Made by a program: the position numbers and the translations under genes. Of a DNA stretch of 64,000 bases, positions 10,414 to 56,834 are shown piece by piece (position 1 is the stretch's first letter; each line of letters begins with the position of its first letter). Source of the DNA: Planctomycetaceae bacterium (lineage in GTDB: Bacteria; Planctomycetota; Planctomycetia; Pirellulales; UBA1268); contig JBJTQP010000092.1 in the NCBI GenBank assembly GCA_046075685.1, positions 861-64,860 of the forward strand, read 5' to 3'. A model generated the notes under the pieces. It ran no database searches and was not told where the DNA came from. It was given only the letters and a program-made list of their open reading frames with translations.

Positions 10414-10576
10414 GTGGGGGCTCTGGGGAAAAGACCTGGGCAGACTACGCCACCGCGGCGGTGCCGTCCACGCTCGGCTTGCAACGCTCGGGTTGCCCGG
10501 GGCGGGCGAATCGCCTATCTCCCCAGCGCCGCCGCGAGGGCGATTCGGCCCGAGCGCGGCATCACGGAGGGCAGCC

Positions 10577-24291: not shown

Positions 24292-26352
24292 ATGATCATC
24301 TCCACGAACTGGCTGGCCGACTACGTGCAGGTGCCGGGCGCCATCGACGACATGGTCGAGCGGTTGCTGATGGCGGGGCTGAACCACGAGTCGACGACGA
24401 CCGTGGGCGGCGATACGGCGGTCGAGCTCGAGGTCACGAGCAACCGCCCCGACTGCCTCGGGCACATCGGCGTGGCCCGCGAGGTGGCGGCGCTCTTCGG
24501 CCGGCCGCTTCACGTGCCCGATCCGCGGCCGCTCGAGGGCGACGGTGCGGCGGCGGAGAGCGTCGCCGTGGAAATCCGGGCCCCCGACATCTGCCCCGCC
24601 TACACCGCCCGTGTGATCCGCGGCGTGACGGTGGGGCCGAGCCCGGCGTGGCTGGTGGACCGCCTGGCCACGGTGGGCGTGGCGAGCGTCAACAACGTCG
24701 TCGACGTCACCAACTACGTGATGCTCGAGTGCGGTCAGCCGCTGCACGCGTTCGACCTGGCGAAGATCCGCGGCGGACGGGTGATCGTGCGACGGGCTCT
24801 CGCCGGCGAGCCCTTCGTCGCGATCAACCACAAGACGTACACGCTCGACGAGCGGATGTGCGTGATCGCCGATGCGGAGCGGCCGGTGGCCCTGGCCGGC
24901 GTGATGGGGGGCGCCGACACGGAGATCTCCGCCACCACCGTCGACGTGCTGCTGGAGTCGGCCCAGTTCGCCCCGCTGCCCGTGCGGGCGGCTGCCCGGG
25001 GGCTCGTGCTCGCGAGCGGATCGTCGTATCGCTTCGAGCGGGGGCCCGATCCCGCGATGGTGGACTGGGCGAGCCGGCGGGCGGCGGCGCTCGTGCTGGA
25101 GATCGCCGGGGGCAGGCTGGAACGCGGGGCGGTGGTGGCGGGCGAACTGGCCTGCGCGCCTGCCATCGTGGGGCTGGCCGCCGAGCGGGTCGGGGAAGTG
25201 CTGGGCGTCGAGATCGCGGATGCCCGTCAGCGGCAGATCCTCACCGCGCTGGGGTTCGTCCAGGAGCGGGGCGGTGCGGCTCATGACCACCGCTGGCGGT
25301 CGCCCACGTGGCGGCGGGACTGCTGGCGGGAAATCGACCTCGTCGAGGAGATCGCCCGCATCGAAGGCTACGGGCACGTTCCGGAAGATGCCGTGATCGC
25401 CGCGCGGCCGATCGAACTCTCCGACCGCGAGCGGACGATCCGCCGTGCGGAGGAGGTGCTCGTCGGTGCCGGCCTCTGCGAGGCGCTGACGCGGAGCGTG
25501 GTCGCGGAAGGCACCGCCGCTGTGGAGAGCCCCTGGGGCGACGCGGCGCCGCTGGCGATTTCGCCGCCGCTGGTCCGTGGGGCGGATCGGCTGCGCCGCA
25601 GCCTCGTGCCGAGCCTGCTGGAGGCGCGGGGCGGAAACGTTGCGGTGGGCGTCGACGACGCCGACCTGTTCGAGATCGCCCGGGCCTACCTCGCGCGTCC
25701 GGCGGGCCGCGAGTCGGCCGCCGGCCCCGTCGAGGAGCCGCTGCTCGCGGGCCTGGTGATCGGGGGCGAGTTTGCCCGGGCCAAGGGCGTGTGCGACGCC
25801 GTGCTCGCCGCGATCGGCTGCGCGGTGCGCGATACCCGGCTCGAGTATCGGCCGATCGCGCTGGCGGCCTTCTCCCCTGGCCGCGTGGCGGAGGTGGTGC
25901 TGCATCGGCCGGGCCATGCCGCCGAGCGGGTGGCCATCGTCGGCGAGGTCGCGGCTGCGACCGCAGCGGGATTCGGGCTCTCGGGTGCCGTGTCGGCCGC
26001 CGAGATCCGGCTCGACCGGCTGACGTGGGCGGCATCCCTCGAGGCACCGCTCGTGAGGCCGAGCGAGTATCCGGCTGTTCAGCGTGACGTGAACCTCGTG
26101 GTCGATGAGGCGGTTGCCTGGGGCGGAGTGGCGGCGGCGATTCGTGCGGCCGGCGGCGACGTCCTCGAAGGCTGCCGGCTCGTGCAGGTCTGGCGCGACG
26201 GCGAGCGGCTCGGCGCCGGCCGCAAGAGCTTCGTCGTGGCGCTGGCATTCCGCAAAGCCACGGGCACGCTGTCGGGCGACGAGTCGTCGCGACTCGTGGA
26301 TGCGATCGTGGCCGAATGCGGCCGCCGCACGGGAGCGGCGCTTCGCAGCTGA
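24292..26352 (+). CDS. pheT: Phenylalanine--tRNA ligase beta subunit (short form, 686 aa)
   Basis: MIISTNWLADYV...LEVTSNRPDCLGHIGVAREVAA...B3/4 and B5 regions, and a C-terminal FDX-ACB-like end (YPAVQRDVNLVV...SFVVALAFR). It starts 4 nt after pheS. Confidence 0.9.
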   Translation: MIISTNWLADYVQVPGAIDDMVERLLMAGLNHESTTTVGGDTAVELEVTSNRPDCLGHIGVAREVAALFGRPLHVPDPRPLEGDGAAAESVAVEIRAPDICPAYTARVIRGVTVGPSPAWLVDRLATVGVASVNNVVDVTNYVMLECGQPLHAFDLAKIRGGRVIVRRALAGEPFVAINHKTYTLDERMCVIADAERPVALAGVMGGADTEISATTVDVLLESAQFAPLPVRAAARGLVLASGSSYRFERGPDPAMVDWASRRAAALVLEIAGGRLERGAVVAGELACAPAIVGLAAERVGEVLGVEIADARQRQILTALGFVQERGGAAHDHRWRSPTWRRDCWREIDLVEEIARIEGYGHVPEDAVIAARPIELSDRERTIRRAEEVLVGAGLCEALTRSVVAEGTAAVESPWGDAAPLAISPPLVRGADRLRRSLVPSLLEARGGNVAVGVDDADLFEIARAYLARPAGRESAAGPVEEPLLAGLVIGGEFARAKGVCDAVLAAIGCAVRDTRLEYRPIALAAFSPGRVAEVVLHRPGHAAERVAIVGEVAAATAAGFGLSGAVSAAEIRLDRLTWAASLEAPLVRPSEYPAVQRDVNLVVDEAVAWGGVAAAIRAAGGDVLEGCRLVQVWRDGERLGAGRKSFVVALAFRKATGTLSGDESSRLVDAIVAECGRRTGAALRS

Positions 26353-26363
26353 AGGAGCGAACC

Positions 26364-28997
26364 ATGTCGCTGCTTGTGGCCGGCCTGGTGGCGGCGGTGA
26401 CCTCCGCGACAGTCATTGAGCCTCCGGTGGAGACGATTCCCGGGATCGTCATTCACCATGTGCCGGCCGCAACGAAAACGTTCGTGGGCTCCCCGAGCCT
26501 TGCGATCATGCCCGACGGCACGTACGTTGCGAGCCACGACCTGTTCGGGCCAGGAAGCAGCGAGTGGACGTCGGCTGTGACCGAGGTGTTCCGTAGCCGG
26601 GATCGCGGAGCAACGTGGTCACCTGTCGCGCGCGTGCAGCCGGCCTTCTGGTCCGGGTTGTTCGTGCACGGGGGAAGCCTCTACCTGATGGGCACCACGC
26701 ACCACCATGGCCGGATCGTGATCCGCCGGAGCGACGACGGGGGCGCGACCTGGACCACGCCTGATTCGGAGACGACCGGTCTGCTCACCGAGGACGGTGC
26801 GTACCACACTGCTCCCATGCCGGTTCTCGTGCATGGCGGTCGCGTCTGGCGGGCGTTCGAGGATGCCGGTGGAGGTACGGAGTGGGGAAAGCGCTATCGG
26901 GCCATGATGTTGTCGGCCGCGGACGACGCCGACCTGCTTGACCGCCGCAACTGGACGTTTTCCAACACCCTGGCGCGAGATCCGAACTGGCTCAAGGGCC
27001 GCTTCAACGGCTGGCTCGAGGGCAACGCGGTGGTCGGCGGCGACGGCCGCGTGTTCGACATGCTCCGCGTCGATGCGCCGGGAACGGAGCAGGCGGCGCT
27101 CGTGGAGGTGTCGGCGGACGGCCGCCGGGTGGAGTTCGATCCCGAGCGTGGATTCGTGGAGTTTCCCGGTGGGGCAAAGAAGTTCGCAGTCCGCCGCGAT
27201 CCGCGGTCAAAGACGAAGGACGAGCCGCCGGTATGGTGGACGCTCGCGTCGGTGGTCGCTCCGGTCGACGCCGGCCGCATGCCCCCTGGGGCGATCCGCA
27301 ACACGCTTGCCCTGATGCGGTCGGACGATCTGCGGCACTGGGAGATGCGATCGATCGTGCTGCACCATCCCGACGTGACCAGGCATGGCTTCCAGTACGT
27401 CGACTGGTTGTTCGACGGGGATGACCTCGTGGCCGTCAGCCGCACGGCGCACGATGACGCCAAGGGGGGCGCCCCGCGGGCGCACGACGCCAACTATCTG
27501 ACCTTTCATCGGTTCGCTGACTTTCGTGATCGGGTGCTCGCTGATTCCGTCGTCGACCCGGCGACCCTCGGCTGGCCGGCCGCCGGCAGCACGAAGGGGG
27601 CAGCGGCTGCGACGGCCGCTCCACGATCGCCCAACGTGGTCGTGATCGTGGCCGACGACCTCGGCTGGCGGGACCTCGGCTGCACCGGCAGCCCCTGGCA
27701 CAGCACACCCCGGATCGACGGCCTCCGTGCGGCCGGGATGCTCTTCACCGAAGCGCACGCCGCGGCGCCGATCTGCTCGGCGTCGCGTGCCGCGCTGCTC
27801 ACGGGCCTGGCGCCCGCGCGGCTTCACTACGAGTTCGTGCCCAAGTGGCAGCCGGGCCGGCAGGTGGGTGATCACGTGCTCCGCACGCCCGACTACCCGC
27901 TGGAGATGCCGGCTGCGACGCCGACAGTGGCGACGGCGCTGGCGGCCGCCGGCTACCACACGGCCTTCGTCGGCAAGTGGCACCTGAACCGCCACCACGG
28001 CCGCTACCTCGGCTGGCTGCCGGGCCATGGGCCGGAATCGTTTGGTTTCGCGTCCACCGCCGACGATGCCGTGCCCGGCGGGATCGTGCCGCGGGCAGTG
28101 CGCATGCTCGCAGAGGCCCCGGGCGATCGGCCCTTCCTGCTCTGGGTGTCGCACACGCTGGTCCACGACCCGTTCACGAAGGGAAGCGAACCACGGGTGG
28201 CCCACCATCGGGCCCGTTTCGCTGCGGAGGGCGTCGTCCGGGGGCTCGATGAGCGGGCCCATTTCGCCGCAATGGTCGAGTCGCTCGACGATGACGTCGG
28301 CCGCCTGCTCGACGCCCTCGAACGACACGGCATGGCCGATCACACGATCGTCGTATTCACCAGCGACAACGGGGGCCATCCCGCCGTCTCGACCCGGGCG
28401 CCCCTGCGGGGCTCGAAGTGGAACCTCTACCAGGGAGGCGTCCGTGTGCCGCTGATCATTCGCTGGCCGGGCGCGGCGGCGGAGGGGACCGCGTCGGCCG
28501 TGCCGGTGATCGGCACCGATCTCGCGGCGACGATTCTCGAGGCCTGCGGCGTGGAATCGCTTCCACGCACCGACGGTCGCAGCCTCGTGCCGCTGCTGGC
28601 GGGAGATCCGGCGAGGCCCTGGGATGAGCGGCCGCTTGTCTGGCACTACCCGTTCTACTCGCCTGAGACCAACTTCACCGCGGCCCTGCCGACGATCGGC
28701 GTGGACGACGGCGGCCTGCAGCAGGTGAGGCCGCACGCGGCCATCCGTGTGGGAAGCAGCAAGCTCATCCACTGGTTCGAGGACGGCAGCCGCGAGTTGT
28801 ACGACCTCGTCACCGACCCGTCAGAGGCCGAGGACCGCGCGGCGGATCAGCCCGCGCAGGCGGCGGTGCTCGAAGATCGGCTCCTGGCGACACTCCGCGA
28901 CTGGGAGGCACGGCTGCCGGCGATCAGGGTTCCGGGGGACGCGCCGCTCTGGTCAACGCCGAATGCCGCCGATACTCCCGCGGCGACCTCCCCATGA
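26364..28997 (+). CDS. Fusion protein: N-terminal BNR/Asp-box sialidase-like beta-propeller plus C-terminal S1 sulfatase
   Basis: AAGGAG lies upstream of the ATG at 26364, and a signal-like N-terminus follows. Asp-boxes SRDRGATW and SDDGGATW are present, then VVIVADDLGWRDLGCTG...PICSASRAALLTG (Cys-type sulfatase motif, C-x-A-x-R variant), GKWHLN and TSDNGG. Confidence 0.85.
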   Translation: MSLLVAGLVAAVTSATVIEPPVETIPGIVIHHVPAATKTFVGSPSLAIMPDGTYVASHDLFGPGSSEWTSAVTEVFRSRDRGATWSPVARVQPAFWSGLFVHGGSLYLMGTTHHHGRIVIRRSDDGGATWTTPDSETTGLLTEDGAYHTAPMPVLVHGGRVWRAFEDAGGGTEWGKRYRAMMLSAADDADLLDRRNWTFSNTLARDPNWLKGRFNGWLEGNAVVGGDGRVFDMLRVDAPGTEQAALVEVSADGRRVEFDPERGFVEFPGGAKKFAVRRDPRSKTKDEPPVWWTLASVVAPVDAGRMPPGAIRNTLALMRSDDLRHWEMRSIVLHHPDVTRHGFQYVDWLFDGDDLVAVSRTAHDDAKGGAPRAHDANYLTFHRFADFRDRVLADSVVDPATLGWPAAGSTKGAAAATAAPRSPNVVVIVADDLGWRDLGCTGSPWHSTPRIDGLRAAGMLFTEAHAAAPICSASRAALLTGLAPARLHYEFVPKWQPGRQVGDHVLRTPDYPLEMPAATPTVATALAAAGYHTAFVGKWHLNRHHGRYLGWLPGHGPESFGFASTADDAVPGGIVPRAVRMLAEAPGDRPFLLWVSHTLVHDPFTKGSEPRVAHHRARFAAEGVVRGLDERAHFAAMVESLDDDVGRLLDALERHGMADHTIVVFTSDNGGHPAVSTRAPLRGSKWNLYQGGVRVPLIIRWPGAAAEGTASAVPVIGTDLAATILEACGVESLPRTDGRSLVPLLAGDPARPWDERPLVWHYPFYSPETNFTAALPTIGVDDGGLQQVRPHAAIRVGSSKLIHWFEDGSRELYDLVTDPSEAEDRAADQPAQAAVLEDRLLATLRDWEARLPAIRVPGDAPLWSTPNAADTPAATSP

Positions 28998-29895
28998 GTT
29001 GCTTGAACCGCCGCGAGAAGTAGAACTCGCTCTCGAAGCCGAGCTGGCGGGCGATCGTGCGGCAGGTGTCGTCGCCCTGCTCGAGCATCACGCAGGCCTG
29101 CTCGATGAGCCGTCGTGCACGGTACTGCGCCGGGGTGATGCCTGTGAGCCGCTTGAACTTCTTGCGAAACGCCTGTTCGCCGAGGTCGAAATCGGCGGCC
29201 ACCTACGAGAAATTCGACTCCCGGCCGATCGCAAGCGAGTCGAGGCGGGCCTCGACGGCCTCCAGCCAGCGGGCCGCAGACTTGTCGGCCGAAGGCTGCC
29301 AGTCGATGATCATGCGGGCGATCAGCTCGATCAGTCTGCCCGTGTCGCAAAGCGTGGGCATGCCGTGGGCCCGCGACACGGAGCCCACGAGTTCGTTGAA
29401 CCGCGACAGCCAGTAGCCGACTGGCTGCAGATGCCGGACCGGTACATCGGGATCGAGCAAACCCGGGCCCCGCCAGGCGTCGAATGCGGGGCCGGCGAAC
29501 TCGACGTTGACCTCATCCCAGCGGTCGTCGCCATCCGGACCGTAGGCGTGCGGGATGCCGGGGAACAGGCAGATCACGTCACCGGGCTGCATCGGCTGGC
29601 TGCCGGCTGGCGAATAGTAGGTGCCGGAACCGTGGTGAACGTAGACGAGCGCGTACCAGTCGAGGGTACGGCGAAATCGGGGGTCCTGCTCCAGCCGCGG
29701 TCGCATGCCCCAGCTGTCGGCGATCCGGCTGGAGCGAATCAAACAGCCCGGGCCGGGTGCGAGCGGGGAGTCGAAGAGAAGCCAATACCGGCGGATGCTT
29801 GACCGGCCGCCGACGACAGCCCGTTGCTCCTCCTCGGGCGGGTGGCCGGCGAACGAGCGTCCTCCCCGCGAACCGGCATCATGCGTTGGAACCAT
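28924..29895 (-). pseudogene. AraC/XylS family regulator (cupin sensor + HTH) interrupted by one in-frame TAG at 29203-29205
   Basis: The N-terminal 230 codons (29206-29895) encode a cupin-type domain (YALVYVHHGSGTYY...GDVICLFPGIPHAYG). They are followed in the same frame by TAG and then GTG GCC... encoding AADFDLGEQAFRKKFKRLTGITPAQYRARRLIEQACVMLE...IARQLGFESEFYFSRRFKQLMGRSPREYRR, a double AraC HTH. Confidence 0.7.
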
Positions 29896-30072
29896 GCGAG
29901 GCTTTTTCCCACCCGTGTCGTTACCATCGAAGACAAGATTCTGCCACATCATCGACAGTGAGGCGAAAACGTGGGGACACGTCGGTCTGCAAGGGACATG
30001 GTGTGTCCGGGTCGGATGCGTTCCGCAGATGCCCGGGGGAGCGGCAAGGTGAGACTGTCGGCACCTGTATCC

Positions 30073-31554
30073 ATGTGCCCGCCCGGCCTGATCGCCGCGG
30101 CCGTGCTCCTTCTTGGGGCGATCGAGCCGGCCTCCACCGCCGAGCCCGAGCGGCGGGTGCCGCTCAGCGTGCTGTTCATCGCGGCCGACGACCTGCGGAA
30201 CGACCTCGGCTGCTACGGCAATCCGATCGTCCGCACGCCCCACATCGACTGTCTCGCAGCCCGCGGCACGGTGTTCGAAGCGGCCTACTGCCAGCAGGCG
30301 GTCTGCAATCCGTCGCGGGCGTCACTGCTCACCGGCCGCCGACCCGACACGCTGCGGATCTGGGACCTTCCGACGCACTTCCGCTCCCACCACCCGAGGA
30401 TCGTCACGCTGCCGCAGCACTTCATGCGTCACGGATACCACGCCGAGGATGTCGGGAAGATCTTCCACAACTGGAAGCAGTCGATCGAGGGCGATCCCGA
30501 GTCGTGGAGCGTTCCGGCAGTGATGCACTTCGGGAATCACGGGGCGGATCAGCCCCAGATGGCCGGCCCGCTGCCGCCGGACCTGGTGAAGACGCCACGG
30601 TGCGAGATGCGCGACGTGCCCGACGAGGCCTATCTCGACGGGCGGATAGCGGCCCGGGCTGTCGAGAGTCTCCGCGAGTCGGCACGCCGTGAGTCGCCCT
30701 TTTTTCTGGCCGTCGGTTTCTGGAAGCCGCACGCACCGTTCAACGCTCCGAAGCGGTACTGGGATCTCTACGACCCTGCCACGATCCCGGAGCCGCGGCA
30801 TCCGGAGTGGCCGCGGGGTGCACCGCGGATCGCCTGGCATGACAGCCAGGAGATCCTGCGCGAGGCCGCGAGCGGGCTCACGCGGGAGCAGGCCCGCACC
30901 ATCCGGCACGGCTATCTGGCGGCCGTGAGCTACCTCGACGCCCAGGTGGGCCGCGTACTTGACGAACTCGAGCGGCTGGGGCTGGCCGAGCGGACGATCG
31001 TGGTGCTCTGGTCCGATCACGGCTACCACCTCGGCGAGCAGTCGCTCTGGGCGAAAACCTCGAACTTCGAACTCGACGCCCGCGTTCCGCTGGTGATCGC
31101 AGCCCCCACGGTGGCCGCTGCGGGCCAGCGGGTGGCGACGCCTGTGGAACTGCTTGATCTCTACCCGACGCTCGTGGACCTGGCCGGCCTGCCGGTGCCG
31201 CCGGGTCTCGAGGGGCGGAGCCTCGTGCCGCTGCTCCTCGACCCTGATGCGCCCTTCAAGCCGGCGGCGCTCTCGCAGCATCCGCGGCCGTCGTACATCG
31301 ACCGGGCACCCGGAGGCGTGCCGACCGCGATGGGCTACTCGGTTCGCAGCTGCACGCACCGTTACACCGAGTGGCGCGACTGGAAGACCGGTGAGACGAC
31401 GGCCCGCGAGCTCTACGACCACGTCGCCGATCCGGACGAGAGCGTGAACCGGGCCGCCGATCCGGAGCAGCGGGACGTCGTCACCCGGCACGCTTCGCTC
31501 CTCGAGGCCTTTCAGCCTCTCGTGAAGCCCGGCTGGACGCCCGCGATGCCATGA
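30073..31554 (+). CDS. Sulfatase (S1 family, iduronate-2-sulfatase-like), secreted
   Basis: The ATG at 30073 gives signal peptide MCPPGLIAAAVLLLGAIEPASTA. LFIAADDLRNDLGCYGN...AVCNPSRASLLTG (CxPxR), SDHGYHLGE and WAKTSNFE are present. The ORF is open from 29971. Confidence 0.88.
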   Translation: MCPPGLIAAAVLLLGAIEPASTAEPERRVPLSVLFIAADDLRNDLGCYGNPIVRTPHIDCLAARGTVFEAAYCQQAVCNPSRASLLTGRRPDTLRIWDLPTHFRSHHPRIVTLPQHFMRHGYHAEDVGKIFHNWKQSIEGDPESWSVPAVMHFGNHGADQPQMAGPLPPDLVKTPRCEMRDVPDEAYLDGRIAARAVESLRESARRESPFFLAVGFWKPHAPFNAPKRYWDLYDPATIPEPRHPEWPRGAPRIAWHDSQEILREAASGLTREQARTIRHGYLAAVSYLDAQVGRVLDELERLGLAERTIVVLWSDHGYHLGEQSLWAKTSNFELDARVPLVIAAPTVAAAGQRVATPVELLDLYPTLVDLAGLPVPPGLEGRSLVPLLLDPDAPFKPAALSQHPRPSYIDRAPGGVPTAMGYSVRSCTHRYTEWRDWKTGETTARELYDHVADPDESVNRAADPEQRDVVTRHASLLEAFQPLVKPGWTPAMP

Positions 31555-31664: not shown

Positions 31665-32984
31665 ATGCCTGAGCCGCGCCAGCTCACTTCCGCCCCGCAC
31701 GGTCACGTGCTCACCAACTGCGGCGTGTGGACGCCCGACTCCCGTTGGATCGTCTACGACGTCCGCTCGGCGGCGGATGGCTCCATGTTCGACGGCACGC
31801 GGATCGAACGGGTCGAGGTGGCGACGGGCCGGGTCGAGGTGCTCTACGAGTCGCGCGAGAACGCCTGCTGCGGCGTCGTCACGGCGAGCCCGGTGGACGA
31901 TCGCGTGGCCTTCATCCTCGGTCCCGAGCGGCCCACCGCCGATTGGTCGTACGGGGCGGCCCGGCGGCAGGGCGTCGTTGTCCGCGCGTCGCGGCCGGGC
32001 GTCGCGGAGCCCCTGGACGCCCGGGACCTCGTGCCGCCGTTCACGCCCGGGGCCCTGCGTGGCGGCACGCACGTGCATGTGTTCTCGCCCGACGCAGCGG
32101 CCGTGAGCTTCACCTACGAGGATGCCGTGCTCGAGGCGGCCGCGGCCGCCGGCACCGCCGCGGAGAAGAGCCTGCGGGGCGTGGGCGTGAGTGTCTGCGG
32201 TCGGCCGGTCAGCGTACCGGCGCGGCATCCCCGCAACCACGACGGCTCCGCGTTCACCGTGCTTGTGACGCGGCTCGCCGACGCGCCGCGGCCCGGCAGC
32301 GACGAGATCTCGCGGGCCTTCGAGGAGGCATGGATCGGCACCTCGGGCTACGTGCGGGCCGACGGCCGGCGGCAGCGGCGGGCGCTGGCGTTCCAGGGGC
32401 AGGTGGTGTCGGCCGCGGGTGACCCGGTCAGCGAGGTGTTCGTCATCGACCTTCCCGACGACCTCGGTGATCTCACCGTGGCGGCAGCCGCCACGCTTGC
32501 GGGCACGGCGACGACACGACCTGCGCCGCCCGGGGGGGTCGATCAGCGGCGGCTGACCTTCACGACGGAGCGTCGCCATCCCGGTCTTCAGGGCCCGCGG
32601 CACTGGCTGCGGTCGAGCCCCGACGGCGCCCGGATCGCGTTCCTGATGAAGGACGACGCCGGCATCGTGCAGCTGTTCACGGTCGCACCCACCGGCGGTG
32701 TCCCGGTCCAGATGACGCATGATCCGCATGGCGTCGCAAGCGCCTTTACATGGAGCCCCGAAGGTCGCCGGATCGCCTGTGTGATCGATGGCAGTATCTG
32801 CCTCGTCGATGCCGCCGGCGGCGTGGTGACCCGCCTGACGGAACCGCGTCGCGACGCTCCCGGACCCCGGCCCGAAGCCTGTGTCTTCTCCCCGGACGGC
32901 CGCCGGATCGCCTGGGCGATGCCCGTCGCCATGGCCGACGGTCAGCGCTGGAACCAGGTGTTTACAGTCGACGTGACGGACTGA
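31665..32984 (+). CDS. DUF3748 (E. coli YidR-like) beta-propeller protein
   Basis: MPEPRQLTSAPHGHVLTNCGVWTPDSRWIVYDVRS...RIERVEVATGRVEVLYES...LRGGTHVHVFSPD...PGSDEISRAFEEAWIG...RRLTFT...GPRHWLRSSPDGARIAFLMKDDAGIVQLF closely tracks the YidR sequence as I remember it. An alternative ATG at 31551 overlaps the sulfatase stop. Confidence 0.8.
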   Translation: MPEPRQLTSAPHGHVLTNCGVWTPDSRWIVYDVRSAADGSMFDGTRIERVEVATGRVEVLYESRENACCGVVTASPVDDRVAFILGPERPTADWSYGAARRQGVVVRASRPGVAEPLDARDLVPPFTPGALRGGTHVHVFSPDAAAVSFTYEDAVLEAAAAAGTAAEKSLRGVGVSVCGRPVSVPARHPRNHDGSAFTVLVTRLADAPRPGSDEISRAFEEAWIGTSGYVRADGRRQRRALAFQGQVVSAAGDPVSEVFVIDLPDDLGDLTVAAAATLAGTATTRPAPPGGVDQRRLTFTTERRHPGLQGPRHWLRSSPDGARIAFLMKDDAGIVQLFTVAPTGGVPVQMTHDPHGVASAFTWSPEGRRIACVIDGSICLVDAAGGVVTRLTEPRRDAPGPRPEACVFSPDGRRIAWAMPVAMADGQRWNQVFTVDVTD

Positions 32985-35900
32985 TGCGGCGTCGCAGCCT
33001 GGAGACGAGGCGTCCGCAGAAGGTGGCGACGGTCAGGAGCGCGAGCGTGGCACCGGCGGCGGGCTCGGGCACGGGCGCCGGCGGCGGGGCCTGTCCGCTC
33101 TTGGAGTCAGCGTAGCCGCCCGAATCAAACATGGCGGCGCCGGCGAAGGTGGCGGCGTCGAGGATGTCGACGAGGCCGTCGGCGTTGAAGTCTCCCTGCC
33201 ACCAGGCGGCGTCACGTCCCGCGTCGAACAGGCCGGCTCCGAGGAAACTGGCGGCATCGAGCACGTCGACGAACCCGTCGAGGGTGCAGTCGCCGATCGC
33301 CGCGTATCCCACGGTGAACGATCCGTCGTCACGCGGCACCCAGCCTACGGCCCTCGGCAGGCCGCCGGCGACCTCGGTCGCCACGGTCGTGGAAACGATG
33401 CCCCTGCCGCCGTTCCAGCCACCAGCGTTGAAACCGTCCATGAGCGCGGAACGAAGATCCGACTCGGCCATGCCGCCTGCGGCGATCGTCACCCGCCCCC
33501 TGCCCACATCGAGCAGACCAGACGAGGCGGAAAGCGACAGTCCCTTGAACACGGCTTCGAGCGGAACGTCGGCGGGCAGCGTCACTCGACCGCCGGCGAT
33601 CGTCACGCTGTCGCTCGCGGCCAGAGCCTCCGGGTGGGTGATCCGGAGCGTGCCGCCCGTCAACTGGGCCGGACCCGTGAACGTGTTGGCCGCGTCGAGC
33701 GTCCACGTTCCGGCGCCCGACTTCACGAGGCTCACGGTCGCCACGCCGTCCGAGATCGGGCCGCGGACCACGTTGCCGACGCCGCTTCCGGAGAGTTCGA
33801 GCGTCTTGGGAACCGCGATCCCGGTGGCGGAGACCGCACCGAGCGTGATGGTGGCGGTGGTGGGCTGAAGCCTGGTGATCGCGCTTACGACCCCCGCGCC
33901 GAGGTCGAGCGATGGGATGTCGAGAGCGGCGCCGTCGTCGGACACAGACGAAGCCGCCCGCACCGTCAGCGTTCCGCCGCTCAGCCTTGTGCCGGGAGCC
34001 AGGCGGTGAGTCAGGCCCGGGCCGATGGTTCCCCATGGGCGACCGATGGCGAGCGTGCTCGCGAAGCCGTTGTTGCCACGAACCAGGGGCCCTGGGCCAC
34101 CGCCGGCGGTGGCCAGTTCGACCGTGGTGGCGGTTATTCCATCGAGTACGAGAACCCCTCCTGATACAGGGTCGCCGAGCGCCTCTGGATTGGCCAGCAC
34201 GAGACCGCCTCCGTTGGTGACCGTCACACCCCCCGTGAACGTGTTGGTGGCGGCGAGCACGAGCTGTCGCCCGGCGGCCGTCACGCTTCCGCTGCCGGAC
34301 AGCACTCCGGTGAGCGTCTGAGGCATTGACGCCTGATGCAGAAACCGGCTGCCGGCTGCCAGCGAGATGGTTCCGGCGAACGCGCCTCCGGCGCCCAACG
34401 CCCCGGAACCGGAGATCATGAGGGTTCCCGCGGAGACGGCGACGGTGCCGCCGAACTCGCCAGTGCCGGAGACCACGAGCGTGCCTCCGCCGTCCTTCAG
34501 CACCCGACCATCGCCCGCCAGCCCACCACTCAGCGTGATGGTGTCGGCATGGTCGAACGCCAGAGTGCCGCGGATCACGAACCCGGTGCTCGGCACCACG
34601 ACCCCGCTGCCGCCGCTGCCGAACCGCAGGCACCCTGCGGCCACTGTGGTGCGGCCGGTGTACCCGTTTTGACCGTTGATCACCAGGGTCGCCGTGCCGG
34701 CCTTCGTGAGCCCGCTCGCTCCGCTGGCATGGTTGAAGATGCCATGGCTGAGCACCACGTCGGCCGTCACCGTGTTCACCACGAGTTCACGGGAACTTCC
34801 CACCAGCAGGTCGAGTCGGGACCCGCCTCCCAGCGTCAGCCCCCCCGCTCCCGTGGTCATGATGCCGTTGGCCGTGAGCGTGCTGCCGGCGGCGACGGCC
34901 TGCTGCACGGCCCCGCCGCCGCTGTAGTCGATCGTGTTCACGATCCGATCACCGGCCGCTGCGGCGAACGTGCCGGACGACGCGATGTCGTAGCTGCTCG
35001 TCGCAGTGTCGCCGGCGGCGATGCCGCCGAAGGCCGTCATGCCGTTGACGACGGTTCCGGCCGTGAAGGCCGTAATGGTACCGCCGCTGAGGGTGGCGTA
35101 GCGGGTGCCCGTGCCCGAGCCCGTGAACGCCCAGGCGCCGAGGATCCCGCTGCTCATGGTGGCGGATGTCGTGATCGGTCCGGTGCGGTTGACGAAACGA
35201 ACGACACCCCCCGGTTCGCGGAGCAGCGGCCCGAGGCCCAGCGTTCCCGTGCCGACTGTATTGGACACGGCGGCGTCACCCGCGGTGATCGCGAGGCCGT
35301 CGAACGACTGGGATCCAGCAATCTTCGCGAGGGCGAACGTGCCGCCCACCAGCGTGACGCGGCCCGCCGCGCTCATGCTGCCCGCCAACTGCAAGGTGCC
35401 AAGCTCAACGCGGAGTCCACCCGTGAAGCTGCTGGTGCCCGCGAGCGTCGTCGTGCCATTGCCCCGCTTGGTGATCCCGCCGCTACCGCTGATGGTGCCG
35501 GCATAGGTGACGCCGCCGCCCGGCTCGAACACGAGCATGGCCTGGTTGACGATCGGGCCGGCGAGGCTGCCGGCCGTTCCGCCCGCGCCCAGCCGCAACA
35601 CGCCGCCCGCCACCGTGGTGGTGCCGGTGAACGGGCTGGAGCCCGACAGGGTGAACGTTCCGGAGCCCTCCTTCACGAGGCCACCGCTGCCACTGATCGA
35701 GCCGGCGAACTCGGTGCTGCGGCCGACGGCTCCGATGCGAAGGGTCTGGCCGCCGATGTCGAGGCTGCGTGTGCCGAGGATCCCGGCCAGCGAGACCGCC
35801 TGCCCCGCAGTGCCGAGGGCCAGCGTGCCGTTGTCGCCGGCAGCGAACTCGAGGGTCGTCGTGGCGAGACTGGTGGAGCCTCCGAGCCGGAGCACTCCGG

Positions 35901-38826
35901 CGGCAATCCGCACGGTGCCGTCAAGCGCGTTGGACGAGGCAAGGGTGAGCGTGCCACTGCCGAGTTTCACGAGCGATCCGCCGGCACTGACCAGCGGCGA
36001 GGTGAAGGTGACGCTGCGGCCTGCGGTATCGATGCGAAACTCCTGGCCGGCCTCCTGGGAGAACCGCGGCGAATAGTCGGCCGTGGTGGCGTCCGAATAC
36101 TGCAACCCTCCACCTGCGAAGGTGATTGTTCCTGCTGTGCCGAGCGCCTGCGGTGAACCGGCCTGCAGCAGGCCGCCGGCAAGGCGAACGCCTCCTGCGA
36201 ACACGTTGGTTCCGGCCAGCGTCACCACGTCATTCCCGAGTTTCACCAACGGCGCAGATGCAAGATCGGCCTTCACGATCAGGGTGCCGTCGCCACCCCC
36301 GAACCGGTAGCCCGTCGATCCCGGCAGGAGCGTTCCACCGAGCACCGCCGTACCGCTGCCGGCGACGGTCAGGCCGGGCGCGCTCCGGAGGTCGAGCGGT
36401 GCCTGCAGCGAGCCGGAGATCACGATCGCGCCGGATGATGCGGCATCGATCCTGCCGGAAGCCAGCCAGGCGGGCAGCGGGGTGTCGGCCGGAGCTGCGA
36501 GCGCCGCCCCGGATGCGATCCGGATCGTCACGGTCTCCGGCAGGGATGACGTTCCGCTGAGCCGCAGCATGCCTTGCTCGATGGCCACGGTGCCGGAGAA
36601 CGAATTGCTGCCACCGAGGGTGAGGGTTCCCGAGCCGGTCTTCACGACACCGCCCGCTCCGGTCAGATCGCCGGTGTACGTGGTGGATCGGCCGTTGCCG
36701 CCGACGCGGAGCGTGGCGGCGCCCAGTGTCAGGCCGCGACTACCGGCCAGCCCGCCGAGCGATACCGTACGGGCCGATCCCGTTGCGAACGTGACGCCGC
36801 CGGCGTCGGCGGCCTGCAGATCGAGCGTCGATCCCGCGAGGCTCGCTGTGCCGGTGATACACAGCGTGCCCGCCACGACCCTCGTGTCGCCGCTGAAGGT
36901 GTTGTCGCCGGCCAGCGTCCACACGCCAGAGCCCGTCTTCACGAGGCCGCCGCCGCCCACGTACGACTTGGCCAGCGTGCCGGAGCCCGTGGTCGCGTGG
37001 AGCGTGAGCGCGCCACCTGCCGACGTGATCCGGGCCGCCGCGGCGGATTCCAGCAACGCCACGTTCACGCCTGGCTGCAGGTCCAGCAGGGCGCCGCCAC
37101 CGCCGATCGTGAATCCGCGGGAGGTCGATTCGGACGCGGCCAGCCGCAACGTGCCACCGTCGAGCGTGACCCGGTCGGACGTCGCCGGGAGGTTGCCGAG
37201 GGAACCGGTGGGGAGTTCCGAGAAGCTCGCGGCCAGAAGCGTGCCCGACGAGACCACCACGGCCGACCCCGGCGTTATGGCGGTCGCGTACAATCGACCG
37301 TTCACCGACAGCATGCCACCGGAGACCATCGTCGGTCCCGCGTAGCCGCCGGCCGTCGTTGAGACCACGAGCAGGCCGCCGCCCGTCTTGGCGAGCGAGC
37401 CCGAGCCGGAGCCGGTGACAAGGGGGCCCGTGAGCGTCGTCGTGCCGGCCACCGCGAACGTCGCCGTGCCCGACAGTGTGGTGGTGCCGGTGATGCGGAG
37501 GCCCCCCGGAGCTTCGAGCGTGCCCCCGGCCAACTCGAGCGGATCATCGAGCGTGAAGATGCCCGCCACCGGCTCGATGGCCAAGGTGCCGGCGGGACCG
37601 ACCCGCATGCCGCCCGCGCCGGTCACCAGCGCACCCCCGGCGAGGCGGAGCGTGCCTCCGGCGACGTCGATGATCCCGTCGTTGGTGATGCGAGTGCCGT
37701 CGAAGGAGATCCGGTTGGTGCCCGTCTTGCGGAGCACGGCGTCCGGCTCGACCCGCACCCACGTGCCTGCACCTGAAAGCCCCCAGTTCATGCCGCCGGT
37801 GAGGCTGCTGGTGTTGGCGAGCGCTGCGACATACTTCACGATGCCGGTTGCGGTACCGGTCATCGTCAGCGTGCCGCCGGTCAGATAGGCGACGTATTCG
37901 CCGAGATCCTGTCCGCCCACGTTCGCGGTGCTGCCGCTGGTCACCGCTCCCACGTACCGGTAGGCCATTGGCGTCGGCAGGGGGGGAGATCCCGCGTACA
38001 GCGGCGAATCGCTGAACCAGTTGTACCAGGCGTAGGCGGGCACGTAGCTCCGGGAGTCCAGCCTCGGGACCACGTTGTCGAGGAACAACTTGTTGGCATC
38101 GATGACCTGCTGGTCCGTGTAGGCGCCGCCCCAGTCATGGATCGCGAACTCCGTGGGCATCACCCCCCTGCCGTACGTGGTGCGGAAGTAATCGACGCTG
38201 CCAATGAACCAGTTCGCCGCCTCGGTCGGATTGGAGGGGCTCGACGAACCGTACCAGTGGAAGGCGATTGCATCGACGCGGAGGTTGGGGTTGTACCCGG
38301 CACTGGCCACGTTGGTGCGGCGATCCTCGAGCTGCGTCATGAAGTCGGCCAGCCAGGCGCGCCCCGTCGAGTTGTCGGAGATGGCGGGGCCCGCGAGTTT
38401 GACCGACGTACCCGCGAAGGCGTCGCAGATCCGTGACCAAGAGTCGAGTGCGGTGGTCACACTCATGTTGGCCTGATCGGGGCGATCGGGCTCGTTGAAG
38501 CCCAGCACCCACTCGACCCCGGGCCGGTGTCTCACGCTCGCGATCGTGGCGTCGCTGGGCGAGCTCCAGAACATCGGGTAGTGCTTCGCACCGAAGGCGC
38601 CGGGTGACGCGCTGCCCGTGCCCCAGGTGTAGTACCAGCCTGCACCCACCGCCTGGAGGTTGGTGTAATTGGCGCGGACGTCGCCAAATCCCCGCCTGGG
38701 GTTGATGATCTGGGCCGGGGCGACAGCTGCCGAAGTGGCTGCGGCGAGCACGACGAGCACGCGGGCCACCATGTGATCTGCGACGCGGCGGCGGTTCGTC
38801 GTGGTGGACGCTCCGGGGCTGGTCAT
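32962..38826 (-). CDS. Giant cell-surface protein: signal peptide, glycoside-hydrolase catalytic-core-like domain, ~1500 aa of autotransporter-associated beta-strand (PATR) repeats, dockerin-like motifs, PEP-CTERM anchor
   Basis: The start is ATG 38826 (1954 aa) or ATG 38772. The N-terminus has GFGDVRANYTNLQAVGAGWYYTWG...WVLGFNEPD...AFHWYG (GH_cc-like). Dozens of G-T-L/S-G repeats follow (GTLTLGGSNSFSGTVAIEQGMLRL type). DGFVDVLD and DFNADGLVDILD are present. The C-terminus is PAPVPEPAAGATLALLTVATFCGRLVSRLRRR. Confidence 0.85.
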   Translation of the reverse strand: MTSPGASTTTNRRRVADHMVARVLVVLAAATSAAVAPAQIINPRRGFGDVRANYTNLQAVGAGWYYTWGTGSASPGAFGAKHYPMFWSSPSDATIASVRHRPGVEWVLGFNEPDRPDQANMSVTTALDSWSRICDAFAGTSVKLAGPAISDNSTGRAWLADFMTQLEDRRTNVASAGYNPNLRVDAIAFHWYGSSSPSNPTEAANWFIGSVDYFRTTYGRGVMPTEFAIHDWGGAYTDQQVIDANKLFLDNVVPRLDSRSYVPAYAWYNWFSDSPLYAGSPPLPTPMAYRYVGAVTSGSTANVGGQDLGEYVAYLTGGTLTMTGTATGIVKYVAALANTSSLTGGMNWGLSGAGTWVRVEPDAVLRKTGTNRISFDGTRITNDGIIDVAGGTLRLAGGALVTGAGGMRVGPAGTLAIEPVAGIFTLDDPLELAGGTLEAPGGLRITGTTTLSGTATFAVAGTTTLTGPLVTGSGSGSLAKTGGGLLVVSTTAGGYAGPTMVSGGMLSVNGRLYATAITPGSAVVVSSGTLLAASFSELPTGSLGNLPATSDRVTLDGGTLRLAASESTSRGFTIGGGGALLDLQPGVNVALLESAAAARITSAGGALTLHATTGSGTLAKSYVGGGGLVKTGSGVWTLAGDNTFSGDTRVVAGTLCITGTASLAGSTLDLQAADAGGVTFATGSARTVSLGGLAGSRGLTLGAATLRVGGNGRSTTYTGDLTGAGGVVKTGSGTLTLGGSNSFSGTVAIEQGMLRLSGTSSLPETVTIRIASGAALAAPADTPLPAWLASGRIDAASSGAIVISGSLQAPLDLRSAPGLTVAGSGTAVLGGTLLPGSTGYRFGGGDGTLIVKADLASAPLVKLGNDVVTLAGTNVFAGGVRLAGGLLQAGSPQALGTAGTITFAGGGLQYSDATTADYSPRFSQEAGQEFRIDTAGRSVTFTSPLVSAGGSLVKLGSGTLTLASSNALDGTVRIAAGVLRLGGSTSLATTTLEFAAGDNGTLALGTAGQAVSLAGILGTRSLDIGGQTLRIGAVGRSTEFAGSISGSGGLVKEGSGTFTLSGSSPFTGTTTVAGGVLRLGAGGTAGSLAGPIVNQAMLVFEPGGGVTYAGTISGSGGITKRGNGTTTLAGTSSFTGGLRVELGTLQLAGSMSAAGRVTLVGGTFALAKIAGSQSFDGLAITAGDAAVSNTVGTGTLGLGPLLREPGGVVRFVNRTGPITTSATMSSGILGAWAFTGSGTGTRYATLSGGTITAFTAGTVVNGMTAFGGIAAGDTATSSYDIASSGTFAAAAGDRIVNTIDYSGGGAVQQAVAAGSTLTANGIMTTGAGGLTLGGGSRLDLLVGSSRELVVNTVTADVVLSHGIFNHASGASGLTKAGTATLVINGQNGYTGRTTVAAGCLRFGSGGSGVVVPSTGFVIRGTLAFDHADTITLSGGLAGDGRVLKDGGGTLVVSGTGEFGGTVAVSAGTLMISGSGALGAGGAFAGTISLAAGSRFLHQASMPQTLTGVLSGSGSVTAAGRQLVLAATNTFTGGVTVTNGGGLVLANPEALGDPVSGGVLVLDGITATTVELATAGGGPGPLVRGNNGFASTLAIGRPWGTIGPGLTHRLAPGTRLSGGTLTVRAASSVSDDGAALDIPSLDLGAGVVSAITRLQPTTATITLGAVSATGIAVPKTLELSGSGVGNVVRGPISDGVATVSLVKSGAGTWTLDAANTFTGPAQLTGGTLRITHPEALAASDSVTIAGGRVTLPADVPLEAVFKGLSLSASSGLLDVGRGRVTIAAGGMAESDLRSALMDGFNAGGWNGGRGIVSTTVATEVAGGLPRAVGWVPRDDGSFTVGYAAIGDCTLDGFVDVLDAASFLGAGLFDAGRDAAWWQGDFNADGLVDILDAATFAGAAMFDSGGYADSKSGQAPPPAPVPEPAAGATLALLTVATFCGRLVSRLRRRISPSRRL

Positions 38827-38933
38827 GATGCGGCCGTGCATGGCCGCCGGCGGCGCGAAAAGCGGGTCCGCGTGGTGCCGGCAGCGGGAACCATGAGTTG
38901 TAGCATCCGCTGCACGGCAGATCGGTCGTTTGG

Positions 38934-39851
38934 TCAGCAAATCAGGTCGCGGCGGGACTGCGGGCCGTGGCCCGGCGGCTTGCGGCCGATCCACCGCGGG
39001 TCGGCCGGTTCGGCAGCCGGCTGGTAGCGGGTGTCGGTCGACAGCCGCAGCCGCGCGGTGGTGTTGTCGAGTGAGGCGTGCAGGGTGTGGATGCCGAACA
39101 CCAGCACGTCCCCGGGTCGGTAGGTCTGGGCGGTGAGCCAAGGCAGGCCGAGTTTCCGGCGGAGGGTGGCCGGATCGTTCGCGAGCTTGCCGTCGCCCAC
39201 GGGACCCACCCAGCCGTGCACGTCCTGCGGCATGCGGGGGGGCAGATTCGTGCAGACGGTGTCGACGTCGGCGTCAAAATACGGGCGCAGCCGCTCGAGG
39301 CGGTGTGAGCCGGGCATGATGATCAGGCCGCCGATCTGGAGCGGAATCTCCATCAGCGGCGTCCAGGCGGTGTAAAGCCGCGATGTGCCCCGATTCATGT
39401 AGACGGAATCGGCGTGGGGCGCCGTGCCGGGCCCGCAGGGCATGACCCGCATCCACGTGAAGTCGAAGTGCCGCACCGCACCCCCGAGCAGCCGCTCGAA
39501 GGTGGCGATCATGGATCCGGCGTACAGCAGTCGCTGGAGCGGCTCGTTGTCCGTCGCGAGGTCGTGAAACGATCGCCGTGGCCACGGTACGCGGGCGATG
39601 CCGTCCGCCGCGGCTGCTCCCTCGCGGAGCATCCCCAGGGAGTCGAGCTGCTCCAGCAGTCGCCGCCGGGCCGCCTCCACGAGATCAGGATCGAGGCAGT
39701 CACGCAGGAACACATATCCGTCAGCGCTCAGTCGATCCGCCGCGTCGGTGCCGCGATCGATCCGGGTCTCGTGAAGCCAGCCGAATGCATCGGCGGACAC
39801 GTCGAGCCGTCGGCCGCAACTCATCAGTGCCGGAACCGTACCGCCCGCCAT
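38934..39851 (-). CDS. Phytanoyl-CoA dioxygenase (PhyH) family Fe(II)/2-oxoglutarate oxygenase
   Basis: The ATG at 39851 is preceded by GAGGA. APHADSVYMNRGTSRLYTAWTPLMEIP...GGLIIMPGSHRL...GDVLVFGIHTLHASLDN matches the PhyH pattern, including the H-x-D ... H facial triad context. Confidence 0.8.
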   Translation of the reverse strand: MAGGTVPALMSCGRRLDVSADAFGWLHETRIDRGTDAADRLSADGYVFLRDCLDPDLVEAARRRLLEQLDSLGMLREGAAAADGIARVPWPRRSFHDLATDNEPLQRLLYAGSMIATFERLLGGAVRHFDFTWMRVMPCGPGTAPHADSVYMNRGTSRLYTAWTPLMEIPLQIGGLIIMPGSHRLERLRPYFDADVDTVCTNLPPRMPQDVHGWVGPVGDGKLANDPATLRRKLGLPWLTAQTYRPGDVLVFGIHTLHASLDNTTARLRLSTDTRYQPAAEPADPRWIGRKPPGHGPQSRRDLIC

Positions 39852-39992
39852 TGTCCGGTCCTCCGCAGACTGCCGCCCCGCAGCGAGTGCCGCGGCACTC
39901 GGCGGCCGACCGCGGATGACCATCGAGTATGCACCTGGTCGTGGCGGCGGGCAATTTGTCTTTTCGGGTCAAGGCATGCACGTTCTCGTGAT

Positions 39993-43713: not shown

Positions 43714-43852
43714 GCGGGTGTCTCCGGGCGACGCGGGAAGGATGATCGGGTGAGAGCCGGCTGGAACCGGGTTTTCCACGCCAAGGCGATCGCGTATCTT
43801 ACGGTTTCCCGCCTCGCACCTGGGCTGCGGCGGGATTCGCCGCTCGGGAAGG

Positions 43853-56698: not shown

Positions 56699-56834
56699 GA
56701 TGCCTCCCCGCCGTGCCTCGGCCCGGCCCTCCCTGAGGAGATGCCTCTTGTCCTCCGCGCCGGCCTCGTGGCTCAGCACCACGCCCGCCGCGGGAGGTGA
56801 GCGTATCATCCTCCCGAAACAGGAGCGGGCGGCC

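Follow-up and report, generated by a model that had tools for sequence, protein, structure and literature searches.

A sialidase-fold β-propeller joined to an S1 sulfatase in a planctomycete: a recurrent fusion with a putative role on sulfated glycans

A major carbon pool is formed by sulfated glycans, which are degraded slowly and have Planctomycetota and Verrucomicrobiota as specialist consumers. Fusions of glycoside hydrolases (GH) with sulfatases are already a known kind: in the ulvan pathway of Formosa agariphila, the P36 GH78/S1_25 protein (PDB 6HR5) carries a glycosidase-type module and an S1 sulfatase on one chain, encoded in a polysaccharide-utilisation cluster. The characterised S1_16 sulfatases have galactose or N-acetylgalactosamine 4-sulfate, or N-acetylgalactosamine 6-sulfate, as substrates, and one of them, AMOR_S1_16A, is exo-acting and takes the 4-sulfate off the non-reducing-end galactose of kappa-carrageenan oligomers. 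In the sialic-acid loci of Bacteroidetes, a sialidase is encoded together with NanOU, NanA and a transporter. The DNA considered here, referred to as the window, is a 64,000-nucleotide stretch of contig JBJTQP010000092.1 from a Planctomycetaceae bacterium (assembly GCA_046075685.1). One gene of the window encodes an 877-residue protein (MFM7205967.1) in which a propeller with the sialidase fold is followed by an S1 sulfatase.

We lean towards reading this fusion as an exported bifunctional enzyme, which would perform exo-desulfation and exo-glycosidic cleavage in tandem on an anionic glycan. An earlier note on the window had described a secreted protein joining a sialidase-like module to a Cys-type sulfatase, and its open reading frame, the two Asp-boxes, the CSASR peptide, the AAGGAG sequence and the 11-nucleotide gap after pheT are all found exactly as it gave them.

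The C-terminal half is, judged from its residues, an intact S1 sulfatase with every catalytic and Ca2+-binding residue conserved. Pfam Sulfatase (PF00884) covers residues 423–730 (E 2e-46, 159.3 bits against a cut-off of 25) and SGSH_C covers residues 687–832 (63.4 bits). The best PDB match is AMOR_S1_16A (9FO1; E 8e-74, 42.9% identity over 408 columns), further S1_16 matches including 6UST (E 1.4e-65) and, ranked lower, 7OZA and 7OZ9; the probable placement in S1_16 rests on these best PDB matches. All metal ligands are present, with D431, D432, D668 and N669 aligned to D18, D19, D263 and N264 of AMOR_S1_16A, and K538, H540, H601 and K685 align with its K123, H125, H201 and K287. The tryptophan that closes the S1_16 pocket is conserved (W495, equivalent to W79 of 9FO1), and so is H555; both are characteristic of S1_16 enzymes with exo action. 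The residues of 9FO1 that recognise the S0 sugar are not kept: E270 is without an aligned counterpart and N369/Q370 are replaced by P767/E768, and the sugar specificity of 9FO1 is therefore not transferable. The CSASR peptide, retained in the orthologues P0122–P0124, had been presented as a variant of the active-site motif. The assignment to Cys-type S1 and the C-x-A-x-R pattern stand, but the peptide is not unusual: (C/S)-x-(P/A)-x-R is the long-accepted sulfatase signature, and C-x-A-x-R falls within it. A tblastn search of the window found no gene with the domain of the formylglycine-generating enzyme (FGE), so the maturation of Cys471 must be encoded elsewhere.

The two modules form one real chain. 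The identical 877-residue protein occurs with the same flanking genes in two further independent Logan assemblies (SRR29270179 and SRR29270180), and is also recorded at NCBI on a 78-kb contig of a metagenome-assembled genome (MAG); orthologues at 74–80% identity have the same propeller-linker-sulfatase layout, the same linker position and the CSASR peptide. Because the identical protein and its neighbours recur in other assemblies and the orthologues share the layout, the fusion is not an assembly chimera, a case that the earlier note had raised. Any artefact, whether a chimera or a frameshift joining two genes, or a decaying pseudogene, is vanishingly improbable. Some decay has touched the cluster, in that the adjoining AraC gene has an in-frame stop, but the reading frame of the fusion is unchanged between assemblies, its orthologues keep architecture and linker position, and neither the family-invariant residues of the propeller nor the catalytic residues of the sulfatase have been lost.

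The N-terminal half has the sialidase fold but is not canonical GH33; the family to which it belongs is large and uncharacterised. An AlphaFold2 model made from 44 homologues (predicted local distance difference test score 92.5, predicted template modelling score 0.90) has 24 strands arranged as six four-stranded blades. Foldseek searches of the PDB return GH93 exo-arabinanases and GH33 sialidases (probability 1.0, template modelling score 0.55–0.62, identity 11–17%), and the propeller has no close solved relative, at most 17% of its residues being identical to those of any solved structure. The two perfect S-x-D-x-G-x-T-W motifs are far above chance and form near-invariant columns across 137 diverse homologues. 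The label ‘sialidase-like’ in the earlier note thus holds for fold and Asp-boxes but does not extend to membership of GH33: Pfam BNR_2 reaches 25.2 bits against a cut-off of 31.4, which is below threshold, and among the NCBIfam sialidase models none matched the propeller. The family itself is extensive, with more than 3000 homologues in 90% clusters and, at 50% identity, 1020 clusters at E≤1e-30 and 5012 at E≤1e-3. Its hosts are mostly Planctomycetota and Verrucomicrobiota, with some Bacteroidota (Olivibacter, Chitinophaga) and Acidobacteriota, and many members come from freshwater, soil and groundwater. Where named at all, members are ‘hypothetical’ or ‘sialidase family protein’, some being ‘exo-alpha-sialidase’ at NCBI. 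The highest-scoring homologues listed are mostly stand-alone, exported proteins of ∼400 residues.

Candidate active-site residues emerge from conservation counted over 137 diverse representatives of the family. E166, E219, N221, R235, K273, D279, R312, N313, Q344, Y345, D354, R360, T361, H374, N377 and R383 are each present in 129–136 of them (Tyr345 in 135), and all are intact in the window protein. In the secondary structure of the AlphaFold2 model, E166, E219, R235, K273, R312, Q344/Y345, R360 and H374/N377 lie at the starts of inner strands, the ends of second strands or in 2–3 loops of blades 3–6; by general propeller topology, this strand-start and second-strand-end face would be the active-site face, as it is in sialidases. 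The spacings are 16 residues for E219-R235, 33 for R312-Y345 and 15 for Y345-R360. They parallel those of the Ruminococcus gnavus GH33 enzyme, with E559-R575 (16) and R637-Y677 (40), and the GH181 positions E218/R234/R305/Q350/Q367 match E219/R235/R312/Y345/R360 almost number for number.

Profile alignments to GH33 structures span blades 1–2 only. In them the arginine of the GH33 FRIP motif stands opposite Gly42 of the sequence (Y/F)-x-G42-S43-P44, glycine being present in 126 of the 137 representatives, and the acid/base Asp (‘SAD’, ∼25 residues after the FRIP arginine) stands opposite E67, a position that is Glu in 26 of the 137 and often a gap. D59, kept in 115, aligns to a different GH33 Asp that is not the acid/base. 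Salmonella NanH, with E231/R246/R309/Y342/E361, offers a further parallel, and Arg360 presumably falls at the site where GH33 has a Glu that buttresses the FRIP arginine. The earlier note had pointed to the arginine triad, Tyr and Glu of sialidases and to the case of a propeller stripped of all of them, which would only bind. The propeller is not stripped: Glu219, Arg235, Arg312, Tyr345 and Arg360 are near-invariant with GH33- and GH181-like spacing, but the first arginine of the triad is a glycine.

The gene neighbourhoods of the family were counted in 80 related GTDB loci. The most frequent neighbour is DUF3748, adjacent to the propeller in 21; a sulfatase lies within 8 kb in 19 (adjacent or fused in nine), a gene of the dihydrodipicolinate synthase (DHDPS)/NanA family occurs in 12, an AraC regulator in six and an SSF transporter in five, and 45 loci have at least one of sulfatase, DUF3748, DHDPS and SSF. 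The cultured Olivibacter sp. CPCC 100613 (locus L070, 1604-12556) has a minimal polysaccharide-utilisation locus (PUL), AraC / SSF-DHDPS-SusC-SusD-propeller-DUF3748, with the stand-alone propeller gene at 10001-11167. The PUL encodes no further domain recognised as a glycoside hydrolase or lyase, the function of DUF3748 being unknown, and its layout mirrors that of the Bacteroidetes sialic-acid loci. An operon of planctomycete or verrucomicrobial type (locus L020, 7007-14903) encodes, in order, an Lnb_N protein, a fucose/arabinose-isomerase-like protein, the propeller, a DHDPS-family enzyme, DUF3748 and a transporter of the major facilitator superfamily (MFS). The isomerase hints at a product of the L-fucose or D-arabinose type, for example from aldol cleavage of 3-deoxy-D-manno-octulosonic acid (Kdo). 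In the cultured planctomycete Pirellulimonas nuda, the cluster holds PhyH, DUF3748, GH16-PATR, SSF, DHDPS, a propeller-sulfatase fusion and GH43, and the window cluster is built of the same components. Other P. nuda cluster proteins annotated with BNR_2 (FGE-BNR_2 and GH43/BNR_2) were compared and do not belong to the propeller family.

A separate observation concerns the DHDPS-family enzyme of locus L020 (11258-12160), which matches PDB 4XKY, deposited as ‘dihydrodipicolinate synthase’, at E 5e-104 and scores 158 bits against the NCBIfam dapA cut-off of 206. Since the enzyme is below the dapA cut-off and yet matches 4XKY, that structure may itself belong to the sugar-acid cassette family and not be a true DapA.

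These loci bear on the reading nearest to the earlier note, namely that the propeller is a genuine GH33 exo-alpha-sialidase and shares sulfated sialoglycans or mucin-type substrates with the sulfatase. It would account for the sialidase fold and Asp-boxes, for the names that NCBI gives to members and for the nan-like context of a DHDPS/NanA-family enzyme with SSF and SusC/D, but it is very unlikely. Beyond the sub-threshold BNR_2 score and the unmatched NCBIfam models, the FRIP arginine has given way to a near-invariant glycine and identity to solved sialidases is at most 17%; NanE, NanK and other amino-sugar steps were not seen in the cassettes, the DHDPS enzyme falls far under the NanA cut-offs, and most hosts are Planctomycetota and Verrucomicrobiota of freshwater and soil. 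With glycine at the FRIP position, a variable acid/base column and no sialidase model at threshold, a sulfated sialoglycan as substrate is not supported in the form stated.

The window is not alone in this architecture, and dozens of propeller-sulfatase fusions exist. In a sample of 352 propeller proteins, which the full-length fusion query enriched for sulfatase fusions, 61 also carry a sulfatase, with the propeller N-terminal in 28 and C-terminal in 33. At least two sulfatase subfamilies are used: the S1_16-like partner is confined to close orthologues, and most of the other fused sulfatases are 50–73% identical to the second, S1_7-like sulfatase of the window (30073..31554). Because homologues of that second sulfatase are the commonest fusion partner, the window carries as separate genes what elsewhere is one chain. 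The P. nuda fusion (WP_197527051) is annotated ‘choline-sulfatase’. Unfused pairs of propeller and sulfatase genes occur as well, and the propeller is further fused to GH43, GH29 fucosidase, beta-helix domains, other BNR propellers and DUF3748 (directly, in P0137). The recurrent fusion reflects functional coupling of propeller and sulfatase. Giant or double-propeller proteins (locus L058, 9596-15604; P0005, P0024 and P0195) are also found, which combine the propeller with canonical BNR_2, FG-GAP repeats and a propeller segment like that of BT_1020 (GH143-type).

Such promiscuity, with the propeller appended at either end to many different catalytic domains, is what would be expected of a non-catalytic, lectin-like module that binds an anionic glycan epitope and targets the sulfatase, or GH43, GH29 and others, to it. 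The absence of the FRIP arginine and of the canonical acid/base residue fits a binding role too, and an anionic sugar might find its binding site among the conserved Arg and His residues. We nevertheless regard a pure binding module as unlikely. Most of the top-scoring homologues listed stand alone, the SusC/D locus of Olivibacter encodes no other recognised GH or lyase domain beside its DUF3748 protein, and it is typical of catalysis that a Glu/Tyr pair spaced as in GH33 is near-invariant. The presence of the propeller in operons with a transporter and a DHDPS-type enzyme implies the release of a monosaccharide, which argues in the same direction.

The identity of the sulfatase partners raises another possibility, that the propeller is an enzyme other than a hydrolase: a beta-propeller oligo- or polysaccharide lyase, or a catalyst of some other transformation, acting on uronate-containing sulfated glycans after S1_7/S1_16 desulfation, as iduronate-2-sulfatase precedes iduronidase. 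The commonest fused sulfatase is S1_7-like, and that subfamily contains iduronate-2-sulfatase; metal-independent lyases likewise rely on residues such as the invariant Tyr, His, Lys, Asn and Arg, the fold matches include a PL25 ulvan lyase (rank 42), and genes of the galactarate/altronate dehydratase and DHDPS families lie near one homologue. Such an enzyme is nonetheless improbable. The lyase propellers known have seven or eight blades, and the closest matches in fold are hydrolases with six, of GH93 and GH33; the Glu-Arg and Arg-Tyr spacings mirror GH33 and GH181, and in the loci inspected no genes for the catabolism of unsaturated uronates (KduI/KduD) were seen.

The bifunctional hydrolase remains the reading to which we return, and it could operate as follows. 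The S1_16-type C-terminal domain would remove a sulfate ester from a terminal sugar, and the N-terminal propeller would most likely be a catalytic exo-glycosidase of a distinct sialidase-fold family. Tyr345 and Glu219 could serve as the nucleophile system, with Arg235, Arg312 and Arg360 holding a carboxylate or sulfate as the anionic group of the sugar at -1. From the position of the buttressing Glu of GH33, Arg360 would replace the lost FRIP arginine. The two domains would thus work one after the other at a single non-reducing end of a sulfated acidic glycan, as part of a PUL-like cluster that comprises the propeller-S1_16 sulfatase, AraC, the S1_7-like sulfatase, DUF3748, a PATR-anchored glycanase and PhyH. 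Relatives would import the sugar so released through an SSF or MFS transporter and then process it with the DHDPS/NanA-family enzyme and DUF3748. Export of the fusion protein is probable, as the earlier note had it, from its signal-like N-terminus: MSLLVAGLVAAVTSA, followed by TV, is a short hydrophobic segment, and the N-termini of the orthologues are alike. It is less typical than ‘secreted’ suggested, being short and devoid of basic residues.

Several observations weigh against this mechanism. The signal peptide is atypically short, the FRIP arginine is missing and the acid/base column is not conserved. The convergence of Glu219, Tyr345 and the arginines in one pocket is a hypothesis drawn from spacing and strand topology only. 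No partner gene (sulfatase, DUF3748, DHDPS or SSF) is present in 35 of the 80 related loci, and the hints to the substrate conflict, with a nan-like layout in one case, a fucose-isomerase-like gene in another and GH29 and GH43 fusions in others. A literature search for the propeller family, its sulfatase fusion or DUF3748 found nothing, and with it no assayed member. The candidates at which the loci hint are an ulosonic acid (from the nan-like layout), a 6-deoxyhexose or D-arabinose (suggested by the isomerase and by fusion to GH29) and a uronate (by analogy with S1_7). A more specific proposal is offered tentatively, as less likely than not: that the propeller founds a new GH family of the sialidase clan, in which the FRIP arginine was lost and Arg360, on blade 6 and in place of the buttressing Glu, rebuilds the anion-binding triad, and which releases an anionic terminal sugar (an ulosonic acid such as Kdo or Kdn, a uronate or a sulfated 6-deoxyhexose) from sulfated glycans, with S1_7/S1_16 sulfatases and DUF3748 as obligate partners in a cassette widespread in Bacteroidota and in the Planctomycetota-Verrucomicrobiota-Chlamydiota (PVC) group.

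The features of the fusion gene and its surroundings are collected in Table 1.

Table 1. Positions of the fusion gene, its parts and the neighbouring genes in the window
Feature	Position	Strand	Residues	Basis and remarks
pheT	24292..26352	+		Pfam B3_4, B5, tRNA_synthFbeta, FDX-ACB; last gene of infC-rpmI-rplT-pheS-pheT block
Shine-Dalgarno-like AAGGAG	26352..26357	+		6 nt before ATG; read directly from sequence
Propeller-sulfatase fusion gene	26364..28997	+	877 aa	NCBI MFM7205967.1
Probable Sec signal peptide, MSLLVAGLVAAVTSA	26364..26408	+		Read from sequence; predicted
Six-bladed sialidase-fold beta-propeller	26436..27578	+	aa ∼25-405	AlphaFold2 model, Foldseek
Asp-box 1, SRDRGATW	26595..26618	+	aa 78-85	Columns S78, D80, G82, W85 at least 92% conserved
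Asp-box 2, SDDGGATW	26730..26753	+	aa 123-130	Columns S123, D125, G127, W130 at least 97% conserved
Stretch with candidate active-site residues	27018..27443	+	Glu219, Asn221, Arg235, Lys273, Arg312, Gln344, Tyr345, Arg360	Family conservation; strand-1 starts or strand-2 ends in blades 4–6 of AlphaFold2 model; putative role
Ala/Gly-rich linker, AAGSTKGAAAATAAPRS	27579..27629	+	aa 406-422	Differs among orthologues
S1 (formylglycine-dependent) sulfatase domain, S1_16-like	27630..28877	+		Pfam Sulfatase and SGSH_C; best PDB match 9FO1
Formylglycine signature CSASR	27774..27788	+	aa 471-475 (Cys471, Arg475)	Aligns to C58/R62 of 9FO1
AraC-family regulator	28924..29952	-		Pfam AraC_binding, HTH_18/HTH_AraC; 3' end overlaps fusion gene by 74 nt
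Second sulfatase, S1_7-like	30073..31554	+		Pfam; best PDB matches 6HHM (ulvan xylose-2-sulfatase) and human iduronate-2-sulfatase
DUF3748/PD40 beta-propeller protein (E. coli YidR family)	31665..32984 (first possible start 31551)	+		Pfam
Protein with PF11790 glycosyl-hydrolase core, PATR repeats and PEP-CTERM-like tail	32962..39141	-	2059 aa	Pfam; tail read from translation
PhyH-family Fe/2-oxoglutarate dioxygenase	38934..39923	-		Also in P. nuda cluster (L004 2634-3542)

The fusion gene begins at the ATG at 26364, 11 nucleotides after the pheT stop codon (TGA, 26350-26352), whose last base is also the first base of AAGGAG. Translation could also start in frame at an ATG at 26316, inside pheT, but both the ribosome-binding site and the gene callers favour 26364; the earlier start would give the signal peptide an n-region containing Lys and Arg. 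The NCBI title of the product is ‘MAG: sulfatase-like hydrolase/transferase [Planctomycetaceae bacterium]’. The position behind an essential gene had appeared to the earlier note as an odd transcriptional context, which turns out to be incidental. None of the 80 related GTDB loci has pheT beside the propeller gene, and in orthologues at 76–77% identity the upstream gene is an ABC transporter or PATR gene, never pheT; the 11-nucleotide junction is therefore a lineage-specific accident of gene order, and co-transcription with pheT as a conserved regulatory feature is ruled out by the same evidence. Read-through from the pheST operon is possible. The fusion gene belongs functionally to the downstream cluster of sulfatase, DUF3748 and PATR-glycanase, not to the pheST operon, and the adjacency has no general significance.

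The window is planctomycete-like, has a G+C content of 71% and contains a tetrahydromethanopterin (H4MPT) formyltransferase gene, PATR/PEP-CTERM proteins and many sulfatases. Next to the fusion gene, the AraC gene is split by an in-frame TAG (29203-29205) inside the first helix-turn-helix, where the translation reads ...ESNFS, stop, VAADFDLGEQAFRKKFKRLTG. Both Logan assemblies (L001 and L002) have this stop too, and an intact homologue with 72% identity (in L009) has Lys at that position. The regulator may have been inactivated, which could matter for expression of the cluster. The S1_7-like sulfatase gene overlaps the first possible DUF3748 start codon by 4 nucleotides. Because homology of the DUF3748 protein begins at about residue 41, it probably lacks a signal peptide and is probably cytoplasmic; a PDB sequence search with it gave a weak PD40-repeat match only and so no functional lead. 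In the 2059-residue protein, the PF11790 core is N-terminal and is followed by at least six PATR repeats, with ‘VPEP...hydrophobic...RLRRR’ as the C-terminal tail; the protein is a candidate for an endo-glycanase that the cluster places at the cell surface. In locus L003 and in P. nuda (L004) the fusion is likewise flanked by PATR proteins, that of P. nuda carrying GH16. Elsewhere in the window are a glucuronyl esterase (fungal-type, CE15-like) fused to a 3-keto-disaccharide hydrolase domain (54692-56968, minus strand) and the formylmethanofuran-tetrahydromethanopterin formyltransferase (FTR/FTR_C; 42817-44256, minus strand), the latter consistent with a planctomycete C1-transfer pathway and with the taxonomy assigned to the window.

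If the propeller is catalytic, a function as a new GH family would fall to ∼1000 clusters at 50% identity whose present labels are ‘sialidase family protein’, ‘hypothetical’ or ‘sulfatase’, and the repeated fusion with S1_7/S1_16 sulfatases and DUF3748 would point both to a pathway of desulfation followed by cleavage and to a function of DUF3748 (E. coli YidR). As a binding module only, the propeller would still be a widespread targeting domain for sulfatases.

Set against the known systems, the propeller is closest in plan to GH33 of clan GH-E (P. gingivalis PG_0352, R. gnavus NanH, Salmonella NanH), with which it shares six blades and Asp-boxes and which its Glu/Arg/Arg/Tyr spacing resembles; some relatives are also encoded in nan-like loci, where a NanA-family enzyme accompanies an SSF transporter and SusC/D. 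In contrast with GH33, it has Gly42 in place of the FRIP arginine, an unconserved acid/base Asp column and only two or three Asp-boxes. The inverting GH181 enzyme of Akkermansia, Amuc_1547, is a distant GH33 relative that likewise departs from the canonical triad. Its signature is His349-Gln350 with Gln367, whereas the propeller has Gln344-Tyr345 with Arg360 and thus does not carry the GH181 signature; no GH181 structure is among the top sequence or fold matches. The best Foldseek match is to the GH93 exo-alpha-L-1,5-arabinanases (3A71, 2W5N; E 1e-11), which are of similar size (∼360 residues), and two near-invariant Glu residues of the propeller, E166 and E219, might correspond to the two catalytic Glu residues of GH93. 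However, identity to GH93 is 12–14%, the profile match to 3A71 (E 0.004) covers one 45-residue stretch only, the conserved arginines are absent from GH93, and the genomic context is one of sulfatases and a sugar-acid-type cassette, not arabinan.

The sulfatase half is alike to the S1_16 enzymes AMOR_S1_16A (9FO1), BT3057, BT3796 and that of H. hathewayi (6UST) in its Ca2+ ligands, formylglycine Cys and Arg, Lys and His residues, pocket-closing Trp and H555, and differs in being fused to a 400-residue propeller and, from 9FO1, in its S0 residues. The closest precedent for the whole chain is 6HR5, likewise a glycosidase-type module and an S1 sulfatase in one protein. Compared with 6HR5, the partner here is an uncharacterised sialidase-fold propeller, and the fusion has repeatedly arisen, with either module first and with sulfatases of different subfamilies. 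The interest of the locus lies in this propeller family and in its partnership with sulfatases and DUF3748.

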